A DNA stretch of 40,001 bases, taken from the sequence record MT446394.1; one strand, 5' to 3'. Origin of the DNA: Escherichia virus TH20. Below the pieces are notes generated by a model. That model was not told where the DNA came from. It saw nothing but the letters and a program-made list of their open reading frames with translations, and did no database searches. Numbering within the stretch: position 1 is the stretch's first letter; every line of letters begins with the position of its first letter. The position numbers and the translations under genes are program-made. This document shows, in pieces, positions 4,766 to 31,205 of this stretch.

Positions 4766-4926
4766 TCAGGCGACACTAGGATAGACCAATAAGTAGGATG
4801 ACCCTAAGTGAGCTTCTCTTAAGGTGTTACCTAAAGTCCTTGACTACAGTAGCTAAGGTCAGTAGAGTAGCGTCAGCTATGAACTGACCTTAGGTCTTGC
4901 TTTCGTTGATTGTTACCATGATTGCG

Positions 4927-5287: not shown

Positions 5288-5381
5288 CCAAACTCCTTGT
5301 AAAACAGTAGGTTAGACTGGTAGCAACTATAGGTTACTAACTGCGTATTCATGCAGCTTTCACCTATAGTTATTCATTCAG

Positions 5382-17055: not shown

Positions 17056-17643
17056 TTAGCTATGACCTGTAGGTGTGCCTTTAGCAGCACTAATTGGTGC
17101 AGCACCACCAGAGCTGGACGCTCCAGCGATTGACTTACCAGCGGCGTAGCCTTGCATCCCGGCGTTAGCAACATTAAGTGCATGAGCCAGTGGGCTGGTC
17201 TTGATGATTTTACCTTGACCACGGATAGCAGACTTGGTGTTCTCAATGTTGGCGATACGGTTCCCAAATATAGCCGCATAGTCACGGTTGTAGCTTTCGG
17301 TAATCCCTGCTCGCTCCTTGACCGTATCTCCTTCGACCTGACGTTCAATCCTGTCCATAGAGTTACCTTCCAGACCGGACTCAGCCACCGCAGCTCTGAC
17401 CATACCCTGATTGCGGATACCGTTTAGCGTGGTCTCTGTCAGTTCAGCCATCTGCTGCTCCTTCAGGTCTCGCTCCTGCATCTTCAGGTTGGCGTCAGAG
17501 TAGTTCATCTGCTTAATCATCTCCTGAGACTGACGGTTCTGAGCATCAATTGCTGCACCTTCGGCCTTGGCCTGCTGGGATGCGGACATAGTGGCCCCGG
17601 CTACAGCCATGATCCCTAGACCGATGGATACTGGTTCACACAT
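17056..17643 (-). CDS. Internal virion protein (T7 gp14-like), 195 aa
   Basis: GNSMDRIERQVEGD...YNRDYAAIFG resembles remembered T7 gp14; GGAGGT upstream. Confidence 0.85.
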   Translation of the reverse strand: MCEPVSIGLGIMAVAGATMSASQQAKAEGAAIDAQNRQSQEMIKQMNYSDANLKMQERDLKEQQMAELTETTLNGIRNQGMVRAAVAESGLEGNSMDRIERQVEGDTVKERAGITESYNRDYAAIFGNRIANIENTKSAIRGQGKIIKTSPLAHALNVANAGMQGYAAGKSIAGASSSGGAAPISAAKGTPTGHS

Positions 17644-18037
17644 GGTTCACCTCCAGATAGTTGATAGCGTTTCTAAGCAACTGGACGTCATCCTTCAGCT
17701 TGCCTATAGCTTGATTGCAGTTGGTACATAGCAGCCCTCTAACCTTTCCAGTTGAATGGCAATGGTCTACCGCTAGTCTTCCTACAGACTCTGTACCATG
17801 ACAAATAGCACATGTTCCACCTTGCTCACGAAGCATTTTATCATACTCCTCAGGTGTTATTCCGTATCCTTTCTTCAGGTTATACCTCCTGTTGTGCTCT
17901 GGGGTTCTATCCTTCCGTATCTTGGACCAACAGCTTCTGCAATGAGGCTTGCGCCTGTTCGGGTCTTTCTTGGTGGCCTGTTTGTGAAACTCAGTGATTG
18001 GTTTCTCCAGACCACAAGTTAAACAAACCTTGGTCAT
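17636..18037 (-). CDS. HNH endonuclease (endonuclease VII-like), free-standing, between genes 13 and 14
   Basis: CAICH...LAVDHCHSTGKVRGLLCTNCNQAIG; likely start ATG 18037 (AAGGAG upstream); track start 18100 is GTG inside gene 13. Confidence 0.8.
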   Translation of the reverse strand: MTKVCLTCGLEKPITEFHKQATKKDPNRRKPHCRSCWSKIRKDRTPEHNRRYNLKKGYGITPEEYDKMLREQGGTCAICHGTESVGRLAVDHCHSTGKVRGLLCTNCNQAIGKLKDDVQLLRNAINYLEVNHV

Positions 18038-18039
18038 CT

Positions 18040-18495
18040 TTACTCCTTGGTGATTGTGAATAGAATGAATACTTCTCCAGTCACTGGACTTCTGGTCCAC
18101 TTATCGTCGTGGAACTTAGCGCCTATTGACTTGAGAAACCGGATGTGGGACGCATTGCCTTCCCAGACGTAGTTCCATAGTACCGGATAGTCCTCCAGCA
18201 TCTTGTCACGATACTCCATGATTCTCTCACGGAACTCTCGCTTACCTTTAGGTGGGAGACGCTCGGTCATTCTGGTTGTCAGGAACCAAACGTTGTCACC
18301 TTGGTTGCCGCCATAGGCGTAAATATCCCCAGTAGCGTTAGTTAAAACCACAGATGAAGACGTTAGGTGTGCTTGCAGCCTTTCAGTGAGACCCTCAGTG
18401 GTCCCGTAGTTGGCTTTACACTCCTCTAAGTCGTCATCTGTAAGTTGTGCAGCAGCGTGCCAAACGTCTACATCTGTAGCCTTGCGAATATACAT
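18040..18495 (-). CDS. Virion assembly / internal protein at the gene 13 position, 151 aa
   Basis: Assigned by position downstream of the phi13-type promoter; no motif recognised. Confidence 0.5.
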   Translation of the reverse strand: MYIRKATDVDVWHAAAQLTDDDLEECKANYGTTEGLTERLQAHLTSSSVVLTNATGDIYAYGGNQGDNVWFLTTRMTERLPPKGKREFRERIMEYRDKMLEDYPVLWNYVWEGNASHIRFLKSIGAKFHDDKWTRSPVTGEVFILFTITKE

Positions 18496-18514
18496 AAAGT
18501 CTCCTTATAACCTT

Positions 18515-18564
18515 AAGGGCCTATAGTCCCTATAGTGATAGTTAAGGTAAATCTATAGGCCCTT
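18515..18564 (-). promoter_or_regulatory. Perfect 12-bp inverted repeat (AAGGGCCTATAG / CTATAGGCCCTT) enclosing the phi13 promoter; candidate RNase III site
   Basis: Arms at 18515-18526 and 18553-18564, 26-nt loop; sits between tail tube B stop and gene 13. Confidence 0.45.
18525..18547 (-). promoter_or_regulatory. Phage-RNAP promoter (phi13 position): CCTTAACTATCACTATAGGGACT
   Basis: Near-consensus 23-mer, +1 G at 18530. Confidence 0.7.
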
Positions 18565-18571
18565 CAATAAG

Positions 18572-20929
18572 TTAGACGGAACGAGCTTTCTTAGCGTATG
18601 ACGCCTCCCAGCCACACCCAACGATGGACACTGGGGTAGGATAGTCTGACTCTAAGGTTAGACTCGTGGTTAATGCGTTACCATTCATAGCGAAGCGATA
18701 CTGACCGTCCCCAATGTTGGTAGTCCCGATGGTTTGCTGACCAAGGGTGTACCCATTAAAGGTGTTAACGAACTCCCGCTCACCGTTTCTGACAATGAGT
18801 CTAAGAGCGCCAGTGTCCTTGTAGTTGACCCAAGCCCGACGAAGTTGTAGGCGTCCAGTGTCTTCAGACTGAGTGCCCCTCTCGTCTTCAATCTTAATCA
18901 GGAACCGTGAGAACTTGTAGGACATCAGATAAGACCGTCCGATGAACACTGTACGTCCTGACCAATCGCCATTGAGCACAGCCACAGTTGAGATGTCGGT
19001 CAATTCACCAAGGTCCACGTAGGCACCCTGACTGTCAATCAGATAGTACCGACCGGGAGACGGAGCGTTTCCACCATAAGCAGAACCAATGTCAACCGTA
19101 GTCTTATAGGTGTCAGCGTTGTATGAGCCAATTGGTATTACCATAGACACCTTGGAGTCAACGTGGAGTCTATATGGCTCTAACGGAAAGTCAGTTGCCT
19201 CCTTGATGAACTTAAGGTGCTCAAGGTCCACTCCTCCTTGGTGCTGACGAACAATGAACATGGTAGAGCCAATCGACGCAGACGCCAGAATCTTATCAGC
19301 TTTAGGGAACTCCCAGTGCGACCAAGAGGCTTGAAGCTGTACGCCGTCCTTAAACAAGAACTTGTAGATGTAGATTCTGTTGTATGCACCTGTAGAGTTG
19401 ACGCAGATGTAGTTCTCAGTCCCTGTCCCCTGAATGTCAAACACCCCGTTAGGGATATAGGACAGTACGTGTCCAGTGGTATCATCGGCATCCTTCACGT
19501 CAGACACATCTGCTACAGCGAAGTATCTCTTAATGCTGGTGAATGACCCACGAGGCGCTGAGAAGAAGACTGAGCGTCCTACAGCGAACGGTCTGGCATT
19601 ATCACCTAAGGCAAACTCTGAGCCTACATCAAGCTGGATAGACTTCGAGGTAAGGACCCCTGAGCTTGTCATCACGAACTGCACCTCATCTGACCAAAGT
19701 AGTAGCTGCTCGCTAAACGGAACGGCATACTTAAGGATTGAGATTCTAGGGTGACTTACAGCTACGTCAATAGGATCATCATCACTCAGTGTAGCCACAC
19801 TCTTAGGGAAGAACGCAAAGTAGCTGGCTGAACGGCTCATGATTACGTTCTCACCTGACAAGAACCCTAGCCTGTTCCTGTAGAAGAACACATCGTTAAT
19901 CGTAGCATCCACGAAGCTAGGCATAGGGTTTATGTCATCATTACCAGCGCCACGCTTGGACCAGTCCAGAGTCTTGAACTCAAAGGATCCATCAGACTTT
20001 CTTACCAGAGCATGCGGCATTGTGGTGACATCGAACCCAGTTACCACTCCCGGCTCTACTGTCTCCTTCCACGTCTTAGTGTTGGAGTCATACATCACGT
20101 AATATTCATCGGCGCTACTGTTGGTCTCACCTTGAATCTTAATGATGTACCCATTTGGAGCCGCAAGGGGCAACTTAGAGATTGTTTGCACCGTGTCGAG
20201 GACTGGGCTGATTAGTTGGTTAGCGTAGCCATCCTCAGTCTCCACTGAGTTAATGTCAGTCCCTGAAGGGGCAGTGATTAACAGGAATCCAGACCCAAGG
20301 TCGAACGTGAAGGTAGGATAGGCAGCAACAAGAAGGTCTCTCAGAGCTGCACCGATAGCCTGAGCATCAACCTTAGGAGGGTCATTCTCGGCATCATTAC
20401 CTGCTGGTAGCTTATGCGAGACCTTAACGCCACCGTTGATTCCCACCTTAAGGGTGCGACCATACTGTCCACCGCGCAGGTTAATTAAAGCGCGTGCTTT
20501 ACGATTATAACCAGAGTGTGACTTCTCGCTTCCACCTTTAACGACAACCTTACGGTTAACGACGAATGTATAGTCTGCCACAGTAACGACACGGATGTCA
20601 TCTCGCGGGTTGGACGACTTAACGTAGTCTACCGCACCGGAAACTGAGTATTGATTACCGCTCAAGTCAACTACCTGAATGTTGGTCCCGTTGAACACGA
20701 TGTAATACTGCTCCTGCTCATCACGGTTAATCAGGTGGAACTTGGGGTTACTCCCAACGTCGATGTTAAGACGTCGCTTGAAGACTGTAGGTGGGCGCTT
20801 CTGGAGGCCATCACTCTCGGATGACCAGCAGTTAACTTGAGCCTCGCCTTGGTCTGAGAACCTCAGGATGTCAGGCTGTTGGCTAATGCCACCCTTAAGA
20901 TTTTTTATGCTTTGCGTAATAAGCGGCAT
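18572..20929 (-). CDS. Tail tubular protein B (T7 gp12-like), 785 aa
   Basis: Size and position; AAGGAGA upstream of ATG 20929. Confidence 0.95.
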   Translation of the reverse strand: MPLITQSIKNLKGGISQQPDILRFSDQGEAQVNCWSSESDGLQKRPPTVFKRRLNIDVGSNPKFHLINRDEQEQYYIVFNGTNIQVVDLSGNQYSVSGAVDYVKSSNPRDDIRVVTVADYTFVVNRKVVVKGGSEKSHSGYNRKARALINLRGGQYGRTLKVGINGGVKVSHKLPAGNDAENDPPKVDAQAIGAALRDLLVAAYPTFTFDLGSGFLLITAPSGTDINSVETEDGYANQLISPVLDTVQTISKLPLAAPNGYIIKIQGETNSSADEYYVMYDSNTKTWKETVEPGVVTGFDVTTMPHALVRKSDGSFEFKTLDWSKRGAGNDDINPMPSFVDATINDVFFYRNRLGFLSGENVIMSRSASYFAFFPKSVATLSDDDPIDVAVSHPRISILKYAVPFSEQLLLWSDEVQFVMTSSGVLTSKSIQLDVGSEFALGDNARPFAVGRSVFFSAPRGSFTSIKRYFAVADVSDVKDADDTTGHVLSYIPNGVFDIQGTGTENYICVNSTGAYNRIYIYKFLFKDGVQLQASWSHWEFPKADKILASASIGSTMFIVRQHQGGVDLEHLKFIKEATDFPLEPYRLHVDSKVSMVIPIGSYNADTYKTTVDIGSAYGGNAPSPGRYYLIDSQGAYVDLGELTDISTVAVLNGDWSGRTVFIGRSYLMSYKFSRFLIKIEDERGTQSEDTGRLQLRRAWVNYKDTGALRLIVRNGEREFVNTFNGYTLGQQTIGTTNIGDGQYRFAMNGNALTTSLTLESDYPTPVSIVGCGWEASYAKKARSV

Positions 20930-24237: not shown

Positions 24238-25801
24238 CTTGAGCCATGTCCTCACCCGCTCCCTGACCTACAGCAGCGCCCATGTTAGCACCAGCAGCAG
24301 ACGCACCGTTGACCACAGCTCCTTGAGCTGATTGTTCAGCAATACGTTGCATCTTCTCGTCCTGAGTCAGTAGCAGACCAGCAGTGTCAATGCCTAAGGC
24401 ATTCAGAAGTCTCAGCTTAAGGGTAGGCAAGTTAATGTCTGGGTCCTGTTGCAGAGGCTGTAGCCCGGTCATCATGTTGACTGCCTGAGTCAGTTTCTCC
24501 AAGTCCTGACCACGACCTAACGCTTCAAGACCTGTGGAGACAGTAGGCTCTACCGCTTCTTTCGGAAGGTCAGGAATCATGCCAGCAGACTGAAGCTGGT
24601 TCATCAGAACACGGACGATAGGTAACTGAAGCTCTTGGGATTGTACTGAGTACACGCCACCTAAGGTCGCCTCCAGTTCGCCAGCAACATAACGAATCTC
24701 TTCAGCAGTGACTCGCTCGGCATTACGCTGAACAGCACTATTAAGAAGGAAGGCCCAGCCTAAACGTTGCTCGATAGCGTCAGCCACCGACTTGGCAATC
24801 GTAAAGTCCTGACCTTTCGTTAGTTGCAGGAAGTTGATGTCCTCAACGCGACCAGCCACGAACTCACCTGTAGCCGCCTTGTTCAGACGACGAGGTTGCG
24901 TGATACCGTTCGGGTTAACGAGGCCCACCACCTTGGAGGCTACCTTAGCCATTTTGGTGATAGCTTCTGTAATCGTCTCCAGCGAGTTCAGGTCTCCCAG
25001 ATACTCCTCGCAGTAAGAACGACCATAGTCTTCACCATCTAGTCGAACCATTCGTACCGGGATGTATGGACATGCAGTCAGTGGGTAGGAACCCTCGGTC
25101 CCTGCTACCTCAATGCCTTCCACTTCTTCATAGCGCAGATACTCGTCGTCCTGACGGTAGATGTGCGTATACACTTCCAGCTCTGTGTCAGGCTCATAGT
25201 CGTCTGCGTTGAGTTGAGACTTCACGTCTTCCGGTAGAGCACTAAACGCTACCTTGTCGAGAGTCACAATCTGCAAGATGTTACCGAAAGCATCACGTTG
25301 AACAACGTAGGACACTAAGCGGTACATTCGCATTGGACTGTAGGTTCCCTGTTCAGGCTCTGGAATGTAGAGCAGACAGTTACCGGAGACGATAAGCTGC
25401 TTCAGTGCTTCGAACAATGGAACACGGAAACTATTAGTCTCCATGTAGGCCATCAATACACGTTCGACCATAGCCAGCCCTTCGTCAACACGCGCAGCAG
25501 CCTCTGAGTCCTGACTCAAGGTCTTGGCCTCATATTCGGAGACTGTCAGTCGCATCCACGGTGACTGAGGGAATAACGCCAACATCAGCTTTGCAGCCAA
25601 GTTGTTCAAGCAGCGAGCACCTACAGCTTGCCACGGAGTTGTGTACTCAGTAGACGAGTTGTCGGACTCCTTAGGAAACAGTGACGGGATAGTGACAGCA
25701 GCACAGTTCTGAGCGCGTGTCTCATATGGCTGTCTACCGTTCTTCAGTCGGTCATAGACCGCTTTGGCTCCTTCAGCAGCGAACCCTTCACGTTCAGCCA
25801 T
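24233..25801 (-). CDS. Portal (head-tail connector) protein (T7 gp8-like), 522 aa
   Basis: Size and position; AAGGAGG upstream of ATG 25801. Confidence 0.95.
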   Translation of the reverse strand: MAEREGFAAEGAKAVYDRLKNGRQPYETRAQNCAAVTIPSLFPKESDNSSTEYTTPWQAVGARCLNNLAAKLMLALFPQSPWMRLTVSEYEAKTLSQDSEAAARVDEGLAMVERVLMAYMETNSFRVPLFEALKQLIVSGNCLLYIPEPEQGTYSPMRMYRLVSYVVQRDAFGNILQIVTLDKVAFSALPEDVKSQLNADDYEPDTELEVYTHIYRQDDEYLRYEEVEGIEVAGTEGSYPLTACPYIPVRMVRLDGEDYGRSYCEEYLGDLNSLETITEAITKMAKVASKVVGLVNPNGITQPRRLNKAATGEFVAGRVEDINFLQLTKGQDFTIAKSVADAIEQRLGWAFLLNSAVQRNAERVTAEEIRYVAGELEATLGGVYSVQSQELQLPIVRVLMNQLQSAGMIPDLPKEAVEPTVSTGLEALGRGQDLEKLTQAVNMMTGLQPLQQDPDINLPTLKLRLLNALGIDTAGLLLTQDEKMQRIAEQSAQGAVVNGASAAGANMGAAVGQGAGEDMAQA

Positions 25802-26061: not shown

Positions 26062-26458
26062 GGTTAATCTCCTTAGTTGTTACGATGTCTACCGACCCTG
26101 AAACATGCTTGACACGGGAATACCAGCCAAGGCCCCAACGCTTGCACTCTTCGCCTATGATGTGCCTGACAGTCTCAAGAACCTTGCGGGAGGACTGCGA
26201 GTCACGACGAATAGCGACGATTGAAAGGTCCAGACCGGGAGTCGGTCGGTGCCAAGATGCGGTAGCCAGCATGTAGAGGTACGCTACTGGTTGACCTGAG
26301 ACATCGTAGATTGTGTACTCTTCACCGTCGAACTCGTCAGCCATACGGTAAGTATGAGCCTTGAAGTCCTCGAATGACTTGAAGTTAGACTGCCCGTCTT
26401 CCCAGAGGCGACAAGCGCACATATGGCGACCTTCGCGTGAGTTGAGATATGGTAGCAT
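26054..26458 (-). CDS. Hypothetical protein at the gene 7 position, 134 aa
   Basis: ATG 26458; assigned by position only. Confidence 0.45.
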   Translation of the reverse strand: MLPYLNSREGRHMCACRLWEDGQSNFKSFEDFKAHTYRMADEFDGEEYTIYDVSGQPVAYLYMLATASWHRPTPGLDLSIVAIRRDSQSSRKVLETVRHIIGEECKRWGLGWYSRVKHVSGSVDIVTTKEINRG

Positions 26459-26974: not shown

Positions 26975-27035
26975 CTTGAATCTCCTCTTTAAGTTAAGAC
27001 TAAAGTCTATCTTATAGTCATATCTTAGGTCCTAA

Positions 27036-27058: not shown

Positions 27059-27184
27059 ATTTCACCTATGGATGACTGTTGGATTGATAGGATATGACTA
27101 TCGGTTAGACTCAGTGTTTAGGGCGGTTGTTCGACCCGAACCACTTGTACATGCAGTAAAGGGCCAGAAGTCCGGCCCAGTAAA

Positions 27185-28538: not shown

Positions 28539-28726
28539 TAGCTTTCTCCTTGGGATTCAATGTGATTGGTCTTTCCACACAGTCTGCACTGAGTTACTTT
28601 GGGCTTGCCATCCTGCGTGCAGTAGACAAGTACCCAATCTGGATGTTTGCACCGCGACTGATGTAGCTCTTCACGCCTGCGTGTTTCTTCAGCGAACTCT
28701 TCGTATGCGCTGTCATAATGACCCAT
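28538..28726 (-). CDS. Hypothetical small protein with Cys/His-rich zinc-ribbon-like motif, 62 aa
   Basis: SRCKHPDW...CTQDG...QCRLCGK; ATG 28726 with AAGGAG upstream, overlapping HNH stop. Confidence 0.45.
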   Translation of the reverse strand: MGHYDSAYEEFAEETRRREELHQSRCKHPDWVLVYCTQDGKPKVTQCRLCGKTNHIESQGES

Positions 28727-28992
28727 TAGTGACACTCCTTCTTAACAAGTTTGCGCTCGCGGTTCGTCTTAATGACGTGTTCGCGCTTTGGAATACACTG
28801 TAGGTGCTCTATGTTGCAGCACCCACGGTTCAAGCACAAATGGTCTATCTCATAGCCATCTGGTATAGGCCCACGCTTCTGCTTCCACACCCATCGGTGG
28901 AACATGAAGGCGAACTTGTTGCCCTTCCTGTAGCTTCCCATGGGTGTGGAAGCGTAGGGTCTGGGTTCGAGGGTCAATGACACTCTTTCCAC
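28726..28992 (-). CDS. HNH endonuclease, free-standing, after the DNA polymerase gene
   Basis: GYEIDHLCLNRGCCNIEHLQCIPKREH; start uncertain (GTG 28992 inside DNAP end, or ATG 28941). Confidence 0.7.
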   Translation of the reverse strand: MERVSLTLEPRPYASTPMGSYRKGNKFAFMFHRWVWKQKRGPIPDGYEIDHLCLNRGCCNIEHLQCIPKREHVIKTNRERKLVKKECH

Positions 28993-31145
28993 GTTGGTCC
29001 AATCTTACCCTCCGTATCAAGTTCACACTTGAAGTTATAGAAGCGTCCGACCTCACGCATCGCCTCTTGAGCAATACGGACGACATCTTCTGCTATCTCC
29101 TGAGTACGACACGCTATCTGCAATTCATCGTGAATCCAAGCCATTAGCGCAAAGTCTCCGTCCCATCCGTTACCGTAACCAGCCTCTTCAAGTTTCTTCT
29201 CAGTAAGTACCATCCAGTGCTTACAGACTACCGCACCATCACCCTGAAGTAATGCGTTCAGTGCTGAGTGTGGAGACCGTATGTGGATACGGCGACCGTC
29301 AAGTCCACGCAACCAACGGCGTTTCCACTTAACGATGTTCTCTCCGTCCACCCACTTAGAGTCTGATATTAACGTATTACTCACAGCTTCCCTGAGGTCC
29401 TTGATGGCTGGTGTGCCCTCAATGAATTTCTTCATGAGAGCTGAACCTTCCTTCTTACCACCGCCGACTATCAGTCCAATCTTAGCGGCCCCTGCACCAT
29501 ACAGGAACGCATAGATGAACGTCTTAGCGTTGTTACGGAAAGCATCATGGTCGTGGTTCGACTTATCGCGTGGGACGTTAGGTGCTAACCCAGCGTTTAC
29601 TGCGTTGGCCCAGTGGATGTCACCTTCGACCACAGTCTTCGCATATGCACCACCATCAAACGGAGCCGCTCGGTTCCCCAGACAACGAAGCTCAAGACCT
29701 GAGGCATCCACACCTACTTGAATCCAAGGGTCTGGCTTACCGTCCTTCTTGTTCCACGCTGCACCGAAAGCACCACGGCAAGTCTCACCATACGGAGCAC
29801 CGTTAGCAGGGACCTGAGCCATGTTTGGTGAACTATGAGTCGCACGTCCGGTTACTGCCCCGCATGGGTTGATTGAACCGTGCATACGTCCGTCTGGACC
29901 TACAAGTTTCAACCATGCGTTCTTACCTTCAGCAGCCTGCCCGATTCTCTTCTGGACTACCAGATACTCACGGACCAGCTCTACGCAAGCCTGAGCCTCT
30001 GCGTCTGGTAACTTAACGTGTTCTAACGTCTCGTCATCGACTACAGGTTTCCCAGTGTCAGTGAAGTCCACAGGCTCCCATCCACGCTCTATCAGGACTT
30101 TCGCTAAGTGGTCGCCGCTTCCCGGATTAAACTCAACGTAAGTGATGGGCGTGAATGGTGCCCCCTCCATCGTGTCTCGTGAGTCGAACTCGCAAGGCTC
30201 CAGACCTAAGCGTTGTGCTTTGTTCTTCGGTTTCTTAAAGATGCCACCGACCTTAGGATACACGACTCGCGGATACTTCGGAAGGTCCTTACCTGTCCGT
30301 GGATGCCTGAAGAACTCCTTGCCTCCCTTTGGTGCATACCAGCTACCGAAAGTCGAGCGCAGCTTGTCCAGCAACTCCGCACGTTTGACAGTGAGTTCAC
30401 GATATAAGCCTTCGACCATCTCGGTGTTCATCGGATAGCCGTTACGTTCCATCTTCGCACAGGTCCACGCAGCATCATGTTCCAGACGCAACGCATAAAT
30501 CTGTTCGAAAGCGAACTGTTCAGACTGGAAGTAATACTTGTCAGTCAGGAACTTCTTGAACAACGCCAGTGTGACCACAACGTCTTGAACGTTATAGTCC
30601 AGCATCTCCTGAGATGGGAACAACCATTCGTCCCCAGCCTTATATTCGATACCCTCGGCCTTGCACTTGGCAACGTAATCATGTTTGTACTCACCCTTCA
30701 TCTCACCGAGACGATAACCCCAAGCCTCAAGAGACTGACGTCCCATCATCTTAGGTGGCAGACGACCCGCTTTCACCGCGCCCATGTCTGAGAACTTAAT
30801 GTTTGGATACATCAAGCGGCCCAGCACCAAGGTATCAATCATCTTGTGTTTCGGGAAGTTAAAACGTTTCCCAAAGTACAGACGCTTCAGCTTGTCTATA
30901 GCCGGGACGTCATAGTTGATACCATTATGGAAGACAAGCATACCATCAGGTGATGCGGCAATCTCTTCCACCTTCTGCACATACTCTTTGAAGCCACCGA
31001 CGATACCGACCATCGGAGCTACCCCATACTTAAGGGTCTCATTCGACTCGGCATTAATCAGGACCCCACAGTGAAACTGGGACACGGTGTCAAGGAGACC
31101 GTTGGTCTCGATGTCCGAACCCCAAATATCCTTAAGGTCAAACAT
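28974..31145 (-). CDS. DNA polymerase (T7 gp5-like), 723 aa
   Basis: Co-linear with T7 gp5 end to end; real start ATG 31145 (GGAGGA 6 nt upstream); track start 31181 is GTG inside the stem-loop. Confidence 0.97.
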   Translation of the reverse strand: MFDLKDIWGSDIETNGLLDTVSQFHCGVLINAESNETLKYGVAPMVGIVGGFKEYVQKVEEIAASPDGMLVFHNGINYDVPAIDKLKRLYFGKRFNFPKHKMIDTLVLGRLMYPNIKFSDMGAVKAGRLPPKMMGRQSLEAWGYRLGEMKGEYKHDYVAKCKAEGIEYKAGDEWLFPSQEMLDYNVQDVVVTLALFKKFLTDKYYFQSEQFAFEQIYALRLEHDAAWTCAKMERNGYPMNTEMVEGLYRELTVKRAELLDKLRSTFGSWYAPKGGKEFFRHPRTGKDLPKYPRVVYPKVGGIFKKPKNKAQRLGLEPCEFDSRDTMEGAPFTPITYVEFNPGSGDHLAKVLIERGWEPVDFTDTGKPVVDDETLEHVKLPDAEAQACVELVREYLVVQKRIGQAAEGKNAWLKLVGPDGRMHGSINPCGAVTGRATHSSPNMAQVPANGAPYGETCRGAFGAAWNKKDGKPDPWIQVGVDASGLELRCLGNRAAPFDGGAYAKTVVEGDIHWANAVNAGLAPNVPRDKSNHDHDAFRNNAKTFIYAFLYGAGAAKIGLIVGGGKKEGSALMKKFIEGTPAIKDLREAVSNTLISDSKWVDGENIVKWKRRWLRGLDGRRIHIRSPHSALNALLQGDGAVVCKHWMVLTEKKLEEAGYGNGWDGDFALMAWIHDELQIACRTQEIAEDVVRIAQEAMREVGRFYNFKCELDTEGKIGPTWKECH

Positions 31146-31160
31146 GGTTAATCCTCCGTT

Positions 31161-31205
31161 TAGTCTAATCATAAAGGCCACTCGATGTGAATGACCTTGA
31201 GTCTA
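31161..31205 (-). promoter_or_regulatory. Conserved stem-loop, candidate RNase III site upstream of DNA polymerase gene
   Basis: Second copy of AATCATAAAGGCCAC...ATGACCTTGAGTCTA. Confidence 0.4.

Follow-up and report, generated by a model that had tools for sequence, protein, structure and literature searches.

Does the spacer between gene 12 and gene 13 in a T7-group phage genome hold only a late promoter, or does it also hold an RNA element that is made when transcription reads through from gene 12? This question was raised by a perfect inverted repeat around the promoter phi13 in Escherichia virus TH20 (MT446394.1). The whole stretch of 40,001 nucleotides that was analyzed is called the window here. 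The window is a Kayfunavirus genome (K1F-like, T7 group). A 2-kb query around the hairpin showed 98.1% identity to Escherichia phage EcoDS1 over its full length, and the same query also matched more than 200 other Kayfunavirus records. The genes of the window lie on the minus strand, and 5' and 3' below refer to this transcribed strand. The coordinates of all features at this locus are collected in Table 1.

Table 1 Features of the gene 12-gene 13 spacer and its surroundings, in window positions; promoter positions are relative to the phi13 start.
Feature	Position	Strand	Basis or remark
Tphi-like terminator	21790->21755	(-)	Terminator scan
Gene 12 (tail tubular protein B)	18572..20929	(-)	ORF list and EcoDS1 gp12; upstream cistron; the 5' arm comes from its read-through RNA
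Gene 12 stop TAA (RNA UAA)	18574-18572	(-)	Sequence
Candidate lower stem, 5' half UAACU	18570..18574	(-)	MFE and centroid folds of the 101-nt RNA; includes the gene 12 stop codon; weak
Hairpin 5' arm AAGGGCCUAUAG	18553..18564	(-)	-34 to -23; in read-through transcripts only
5' arm conserved core GGCCUAUAG	18553-18561	(-)	Comparison of 27 distinct relatives
Apical loop, 26 nt	18527..18552	(-)	5 variable bases (-22 to -18) and promoter positions -17 to +4, including +1
Phage RNA-polymerase promoter phi13 CCTTAACTATCACTATAGGGACT	18525..18547	(-)	-17 to +6; +5 and +6 overlap the 3' arm
Hairpin 3' arm CUAUAGGCCCUU	18515..18526	(-)	+5 to +16; in both read-through and phi13-initiated RNA
3' arm conserved core	18518-18526	(-)	Comparison of 27 distinct relatives
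Candidate lower stem, 3' half GGUUA	18508..18512	(-)	Folds; just upstream of the gene 13 SD; weak
Gene 13 Shine-Dalgarno (SD) AAGGAG	18506-18501	(-)	Sequence
Gene 13 start ATG	18495	(-)	Sequence
Gene 13 (internal virion protein)	18040..18495	(-)	ORF list and EcoDS1 gp13; first cistron downstream of phi13 and the hairpin

The inverted repeat and the promoter inside it

The repeat search returned two arms of 12 nt, 18515-18526 and 18553-18564, which are 100% complementary and separated by 26 nt (AAGGGCCTATAG / CTATAGGCCCTT). The first-pass annotation had described a perfect 12-bp inverted repeat with a 26-nt loop containing the promoter start. This description was exact, with +1 placed at 18530. 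In the RNA, the gene 12 UAA is followed by UAUUG, the 5' arm, the loop AUUUACCUUAACUAUCACUAUAGGGA, the 3' arm, AAGGUUAU, AAGGAG, ACUUU, and the gene 13 AUG.

The start site was assigned from the match of the core to the 10 promoter-like sites of the window, from the annotation of phi13 in EcoDS1, and from the annotated start in T7. On the minus strand, 10 promoter-like sites were found against 0.64 expected by chance, and the phi13 core ATCACTATAGGGA is among them. The consensus of these 10 sites is CCTAAACTATCACTATAGGGA, and phi13 matches it. The EcoDS1 record, 98% identical to the window, annotates the homologous 23 nt as promoter 'phi13'. T7 has its annotated start at the first G behind TATA, and the alignment places +1 of the window at the same base. 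The name phi13, which had been given to this promoter from the letters only, thus fits both the window consensus and the EcoDS1 annotation. The promoter from -17 to +4 is held inside the loop of the hairpin within the gene 12-gene 13 spacer, so the promoter and the hairpin are nested as had been proposed.

Two classes of RNA can be made across this spacer. RNA reading through from gene 12 contains both arms, so that the 12-bp hairpin can form. The folding energy of the 50-nt RNA is -20.4 kcal/mol, compared with -10.5 +/- 2.6 kcal/mol for shuffled sequences (z = -3.76), and 0 of 200 shuffles were as stable; on the transcribed strand the hairpin is more stable than its composition predicts. RNA started at phi13 has one arm only, as follows directly from the position of the 3' arm behind the start. 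These two statements of the first-pass annotation were therefore borne out. The promoter-site scan of the window found no phage promoter from the Tphi-like terminator to phi13, so read-through of Tphi is the only source of gene 11-12 message. In T7, the gene 11-12 message likewise comes from Tphi read-through (PMC5592923).

The chance of finding such a repeat was estimated in dinucleotide-shuffled sequences. With loops of 3-60 nt allowed, a shuffled 40-kb window had 0.16 perfect 12-bp inverted repeats on average, and at least one was present in 11% of the shuffles. The real window has one further perfect inverted repeat of this class besides that of phi13. The repeat by itself is only moderately unlikely; it is non-random because of its position and conservation, not because of its mere presence. 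Only 2 of the 10 window promoters are spanned by long stems, namely phi13 (12 bp) and the phi6.5-equivalent (11 bp), and the stems at the other eight are 4-8 bp.

Single-sequence folds of a 101-nt RNA placed a candidate lower stem of 5 bp, UAACU/GGUUA, below the main stem, with a 5-nt/2-nt internal loop between the two. Across the relatives, this lower stem is paired in 92.6% of the cells without compensatory change, and it is missing from the RNAalifold consensus of the alignment. A T7-group R13 site is expected to have about two helical turns of irregular duplex, with the scissile bond in an internal loop between an upper and a lower stem. For the window, a 12-bp stem (9 bp genus-wide), an internal loop, and the candidate lower stem were predicted in this order by the single-sequence folds. 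An Rfam scan of 18300-18800 on both strands gave no match up to E = 10.

Other hairpins were noticed in the window. The only other perfect inverted repeat of at least 12 bp is a 14-bp repeat, 28881-28894 / 28940-28953, with a 45-nt spacer. Its RNA (28881-28953) folds at -45 kcal/mol (z = -5.4). The DNA polymerase ORF (28974..31181, minus strand) lies just upstream of this repeat, which is contained in a small ORF (28726..28992) found where gene 5.5 would be. An 11-bp hairpin, AACUAUAGGU...ACCUAUAGUU, is located at 5325-5371 on the minus strand (z = -5.0); the right-end promoter (+1 = 5270) follows about 50-100 nt downstream. The CUAUAGG motif of the phi13 arms is also present in this hairpin, and its 3' half CCTATAGT is complementary to the core of the right-end promoter. 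Downstream of that promoter, close to the right end of the genome, a perfect 11-bp inverted repeat, CTAAGGTCAGT, with a 19-nt spacer is found at 4853-4893.

Conservation within Kayfunavirus and across Studiervirinae

For the comparison within the genus, 27 distinct Kayfunavirus spacers were assembled from IMG/VR, metagenomes, and GenBank. The genus-wide consensus stem is 9 bp (GGCCUAUAG/CUAUAGGCC) with a loop of 26-29 nt. In one relative, an A-to-G change gives a G·U pair in the core; the other pairs in the 27 sequences are Watson-Crick. The outer 3 bp are lineage-specific, and on these sequences all 12 bp are perfect in the K1F/EcoDS1 sub-lineage only. Conservation of the repeat in relatives thus stood for the 9-bp core over the 27 distinct sequences and fell for the full 12 bp, the third pair of which is kept in 7 of 27.

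No compensatory pair (0) was found in the stem among the 27 distinct Kayfunavirus sequences, and the shuffle controls were not exceeded. The support that these alignments offer at the genus level is accordingly that of conservation only, and the invariance of the core gives nothing direct on pairing. By column conservation, given as the majority fraction, the 5' core scores 0.984 and the 3' core 0.992; the five loop bases beside the 5' arm score 0.77, and the end of gene 12 scores 0.76. The conservation of the 3' arm could come partly from the initially transcribed sequence or the 5' UTR. Neither the promoter nor the coding sequence includes the 5' arm, so its invariance is unexplained by promoter or protein constraints.

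The same arms enclose three promoter sequences in the relatives: the window type, ATTACACCCTCACTATAGGGA, and AAATATTTAACACTCACTATAGGGA. At four loci (L011, L023, L049, and L097), ATTACACCCTCACTATAGGGA or AAATATTTAACACTCACTATAGGGA was observed at phi13 between identical hairpin arms. Different promoters between identical arms imply, as far as the sequences can tell, that the RNA-polymerase/promoter specificity has switched within the genus. One locus, from Enterobacter phage 04_vB_Eclo_IJM (L047), has indels in both arms. These arm changes were given no weight because the gene 12 region of this record is annotated as short hypothetical ORFs only, and the changes may be sequencing or assembly errors.

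The public annotations were also compared. Among the 60 Kayfunavirus matches listed, no stem-loop or RNase III feature stands under the match; the features there are genes, promoters, or a ribosome-binding site. Similarly, no stem-loop is annotated at phi13 in the EcoDS1, K1F, and CR44b records, which were the ones compared in detail.

At the other side of gene 13, gene 13.5 was observed between genes 13 and 14 (window about 17636-18040, minus strand). It is annotated as endonuclease VII in NC_011042 and phiYeO3-12. The end of gene 13 is where most Kayfunavirus matches stop aligning, which suggests that gene 13.5 is a sporadically distributed and possibly mobile insert.

Beyond the genus, an alignment of gp13 led to 72 loci with 57 distinct Studiervirinae spacers in several promoter-specificity groups. 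In 57 of the 57 distinct spacers, phi13 is inside a hairpin, and the arm sequences differ between the groups. Among the 20 distinct sequences of the T7/T3/K11-type set, the 5' arm follows the promoter core: position +7 is paired as U-A, G-C, or C-G, and in one phage GGGGAC replaces GGGAGA and the 5' arm matches the change. G·U pairs occur at -2 in 12 of the 20 sequences and at -4 in 17 of the 20. A G·U pair is a mismatch in DNA, so pairing in RNA is favored, and the comparison points to an element that works as RNA rather than as DNA. Two more groups have flanking arms as in Kayfunavirus with unrelated sequences, ACCCUAUG/CAUAGGGU and ACCCC/GGGGU. These cross-genus hairpins, with their compensatory changes and G·U pairs, support the family as a whole; they do not give a pair-by-pair homology with the Kayfunavirus stem.

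Predicted processing of read-through RNA and the competing readings

Taken together, the hairpin is best explained as the Kayfunavirus counterpart of the T7-group R13 processing hairpin, an RNA element that encloses the late promoter phi13; we put the probability of this reading at about 65%, with cleavage itself predicted by homology. Polymerases that pass the Tphi terminator and continue through genes 11-12 copy both arms, and the RNA can then fold into the 12-bp stem with the promoter in the loop. By homology with R13 and R6.5 of T7 and T3, the host RNase III would recognize this hairpin and cut near its 3' base, at about +17 (window about 18514). The cut in T7 R13 falls a few bases after the phi13 start, a point that was not used as evidence here. 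In sites that RNase III cuts, the proximal and distal boxes, defined from the position of the cut, are free of inhibitory base pairs (antideterminants). After the cut, again by homology, the gene 11-12 message would keep the hairpin as a protective 3' end, and genes 13-16 would be released on a message of their own. Transcripts started at phi13 have the 3' arm alone, so they are unable to form the site and would escape processing. In this genus, the 3' arm is a separate CUAUAGG copy just after the promoter core, which gives the same layout of arms flanking a promoter as in T3 R6.5.

A functional RNA structure might also work without being an RNase III substrate. The hairpin could be a barrier to 3'-end exonucleases, or it could make the translation of gene 13 dependent on the origin of the transcript, with the SD paired upstream of the hairpin in read-through RNA and open in phi13-initiated RNA. 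The stem of 9 bp conserved in the genus, with its loop of 26-29 nt, is short for an RNase III substrate, and T7 R13 is itself weakly cleaved (PMC5592923). The partition-function folds agree with a difference in translation, as GGAG of the SD is mostly paired in the read-through RNA (unpaired probability 0.08-0.26) and mostly free in the phi13-initiated RNA (0.64, 0.67, 0.96, and 0.23); in the computed folds, the gene 13 SD is less accessible in the read-through RNA than in the phi13-initiated or the cut RNA. However, the pairings that occlude the SD are neither conserved nor covarying in the relatives, several of which have a longer and different 3' spacer. A 3' barrier would need something that makes the 3' end, and a terminator-like signal was not found here. 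The homologous sites in T3 and phiYeO3-12 are, moreover, annotated as RNase III sites. A structure of this kind that is not processed is unlikely on this evidence. That the hairpin stops or pauses the phage RNA polymerase behind gene 12 is the least probable of the readings, although it is stable and stands right after the stop codon. Intrinsic and Tphi-type terminators are G+C-rich hairpins that have a short loop and a U-run behind them. Here no U-run follows the stem, the next bases being UUAAGGUUAU, and the 26-nt loop is unlike the known hairpin terminators of phage RNA polymerases. The scan of 18000-19000 detected no terminator-like site, and the same scan found the Tphi-like terminator of Table 1; the terminator reading was rejected on the tail sequence and the scan.

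The complementary arms could also be a functionless by-product, if a local duplication of the palindromic CTATAG(G) segment of the promoter, together with an upstream copy, made them complementary by accident. CTATAG is self-complementary and is present in three copies here, in the 5' arm, the promoter core, and the 3' arm; the 3' arm segment CTATAGGCC resembles the core CTATAGGGA and directly follows it. The frequency of such repeats in shuffled windows (11%) also leaves room for chance. An accident is nevertheless improbable, as the 5' arm at -34 to -23 is outside the promoter and near-invariant while its neighbors vary, the arms survive replacement of the promoter, other genera keep a phi13 hairpin with unrelated arms and compensatory changes, and 8 of the 10 window promoters have no such stem. 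Even less probable is an element at the DNA level that modulates the firing of phi13, such as the site of a dimeric protein or a cruciform. The Watson-Crick pairs of Kayfunavirus and the symmetric bracketing of the promoter by the arms would suit such an element, but the pairing in the T7/T3/K11-type homologues depends on G·U, a mismatch in DNA, and one Kayfunavirus relative has a G·U pair too. The 9-mer GGCCTATAG is present in the two arms only and absent from the rest of the window, which also argues against a DNA element. A spacer of 26 nt disfavors cruciform extrusion, and the late promoters of T7-group phages are not known to have a DNA-binding regulator. A dispersed DNA motif was considered as well and was rejected, as GGCCTATAG is confined to the two arms.

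Within the R13-type reading, a further proposal concerns the origin of the separate 3' arm and is put forward tentatively. An ancestral R13 may have been rebuilt in Kayfunavirus by duplication of the CUAUAGG start segment of the promoter, which would have freed the hairpin from promoter specificity; the classes of gene 13 mRNA may then differ in translation as well as in processing, with the read-through RNA alone masking the SD until it is cut. If the duplication did move the 3' arm off the core, the three promoter sequences between identical arms in the relatives would be explained.

The feature is an unannotated example of a known arrangement and not a new mechanism, as the principle was laid out for T7 decades ago. 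It adds a probable, unannotated regulatory RNA element to phages of the K1F/EcoDS1 type, which are used in phage therapy and engineering. Any refactoring of such genomes, or swapping of their promoters, should take into account that the bases -34 to -23 and +5 to +16 relative to the phi13 start probably have a function. The design of a promoter within a processing hairpin, at gene 13 and at gene 6.5, has been held in every Studiervirinae group sampled despite the replacement of the arms.

Comparison with R13, R6.5, and Tphi-type terminators

R13 is among the RNase cleavage sites of T7 (PMC6938266; PMC5592923), and an arrangement of promoter and RNase site together has been described as common in T7 (PMC6938266). 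Within T7, R13 has been described as a weak cleavage site and R6.5 as a strong one (PMC5592923). In the curated T3 record, a stem_loop at 25443-25480 is labeled 'RNase III recognition site R13' and has phi13 (25457-25479) inside; R6.5 is annotated at 17135-17206, with phi6.5 (17160-17182) inside. A 'putative RNase III site R13' also stands in the curated phiYeO3-12 record, where it occupies 26209-26246 and encloses phi13 (26223-26245). In the GenBank and RefSeq records of T7, the phi13 promoter is annotated and an R13 feature is absent; the T7 spacer folds into UUCUCCCUGUGGUG...CACUAUAGGGAGAA at -29.5 kcal/mol (z = -4.6). The label "R13-type", which the first-pass annotation had applied to the hairpin, fits: the gene 12/13 junction is the same, phi13 is nested in the R13 annotations of T3 and phiYeO3-12, and the T7 fold is alike.

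The window's phi6.5-equivalent promoter (+1 = 27041, minus strand) is also enclosed by a hairpin. Its imperfect arms, 27004-27027 / 27088-27111, are 24 nt long and 83% complementary with an 11-bp perfect core, and the RNA folds at -31.3 kcal/mol (z = -3.7). This hairpin likely corresponds to the RNase III site R6.5 of T3 and T7.

The Kayfunavirus hairpin shares with R13 of T7, T3, and phiYeO3-12 its place in the gene 12/13 spacer downstream of Tphi read-through, and in each case the promoter is nested in the stem-loop. The 5' arm likewise needs read-through RNA, and promoter-initiated RNA is without it. In T7 and T3 R13, however, the promoter core (-7 to +7) serves as the 3' arm, and G·U pairs or a small internal loop are found in the stem, whereas in the window the 3' arm is separate (+5 to +16), the promoter is in the 26-nt loop, and the pairs are Watson-Crick throughout. 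The arm sequences are unrelated to those of the T7, T3, and phiYeO3-12 R13, and cleavage, although weak, is documented for T7 R13 while the Kayfunavirus hairpin is a predicted site. Its geometry is like that of R6.5 in T3 (and T7), where the arms flank a promoter in the apical loop and the 3' arm starts a few bases after +1; R6.5 differs in its locus, before gene 6.5, and in its stem, which is longer and built in two tiers, the lower one measuring 9 bp in T3. With the Tphi-type hairpin terminators it has in common a stable hairpin in an intergenic spacer of a late transcript. It differs from them in its large loop, in having no U-run, and in giving no match in the terminator scan, which the Tphi-like site of the window did match.
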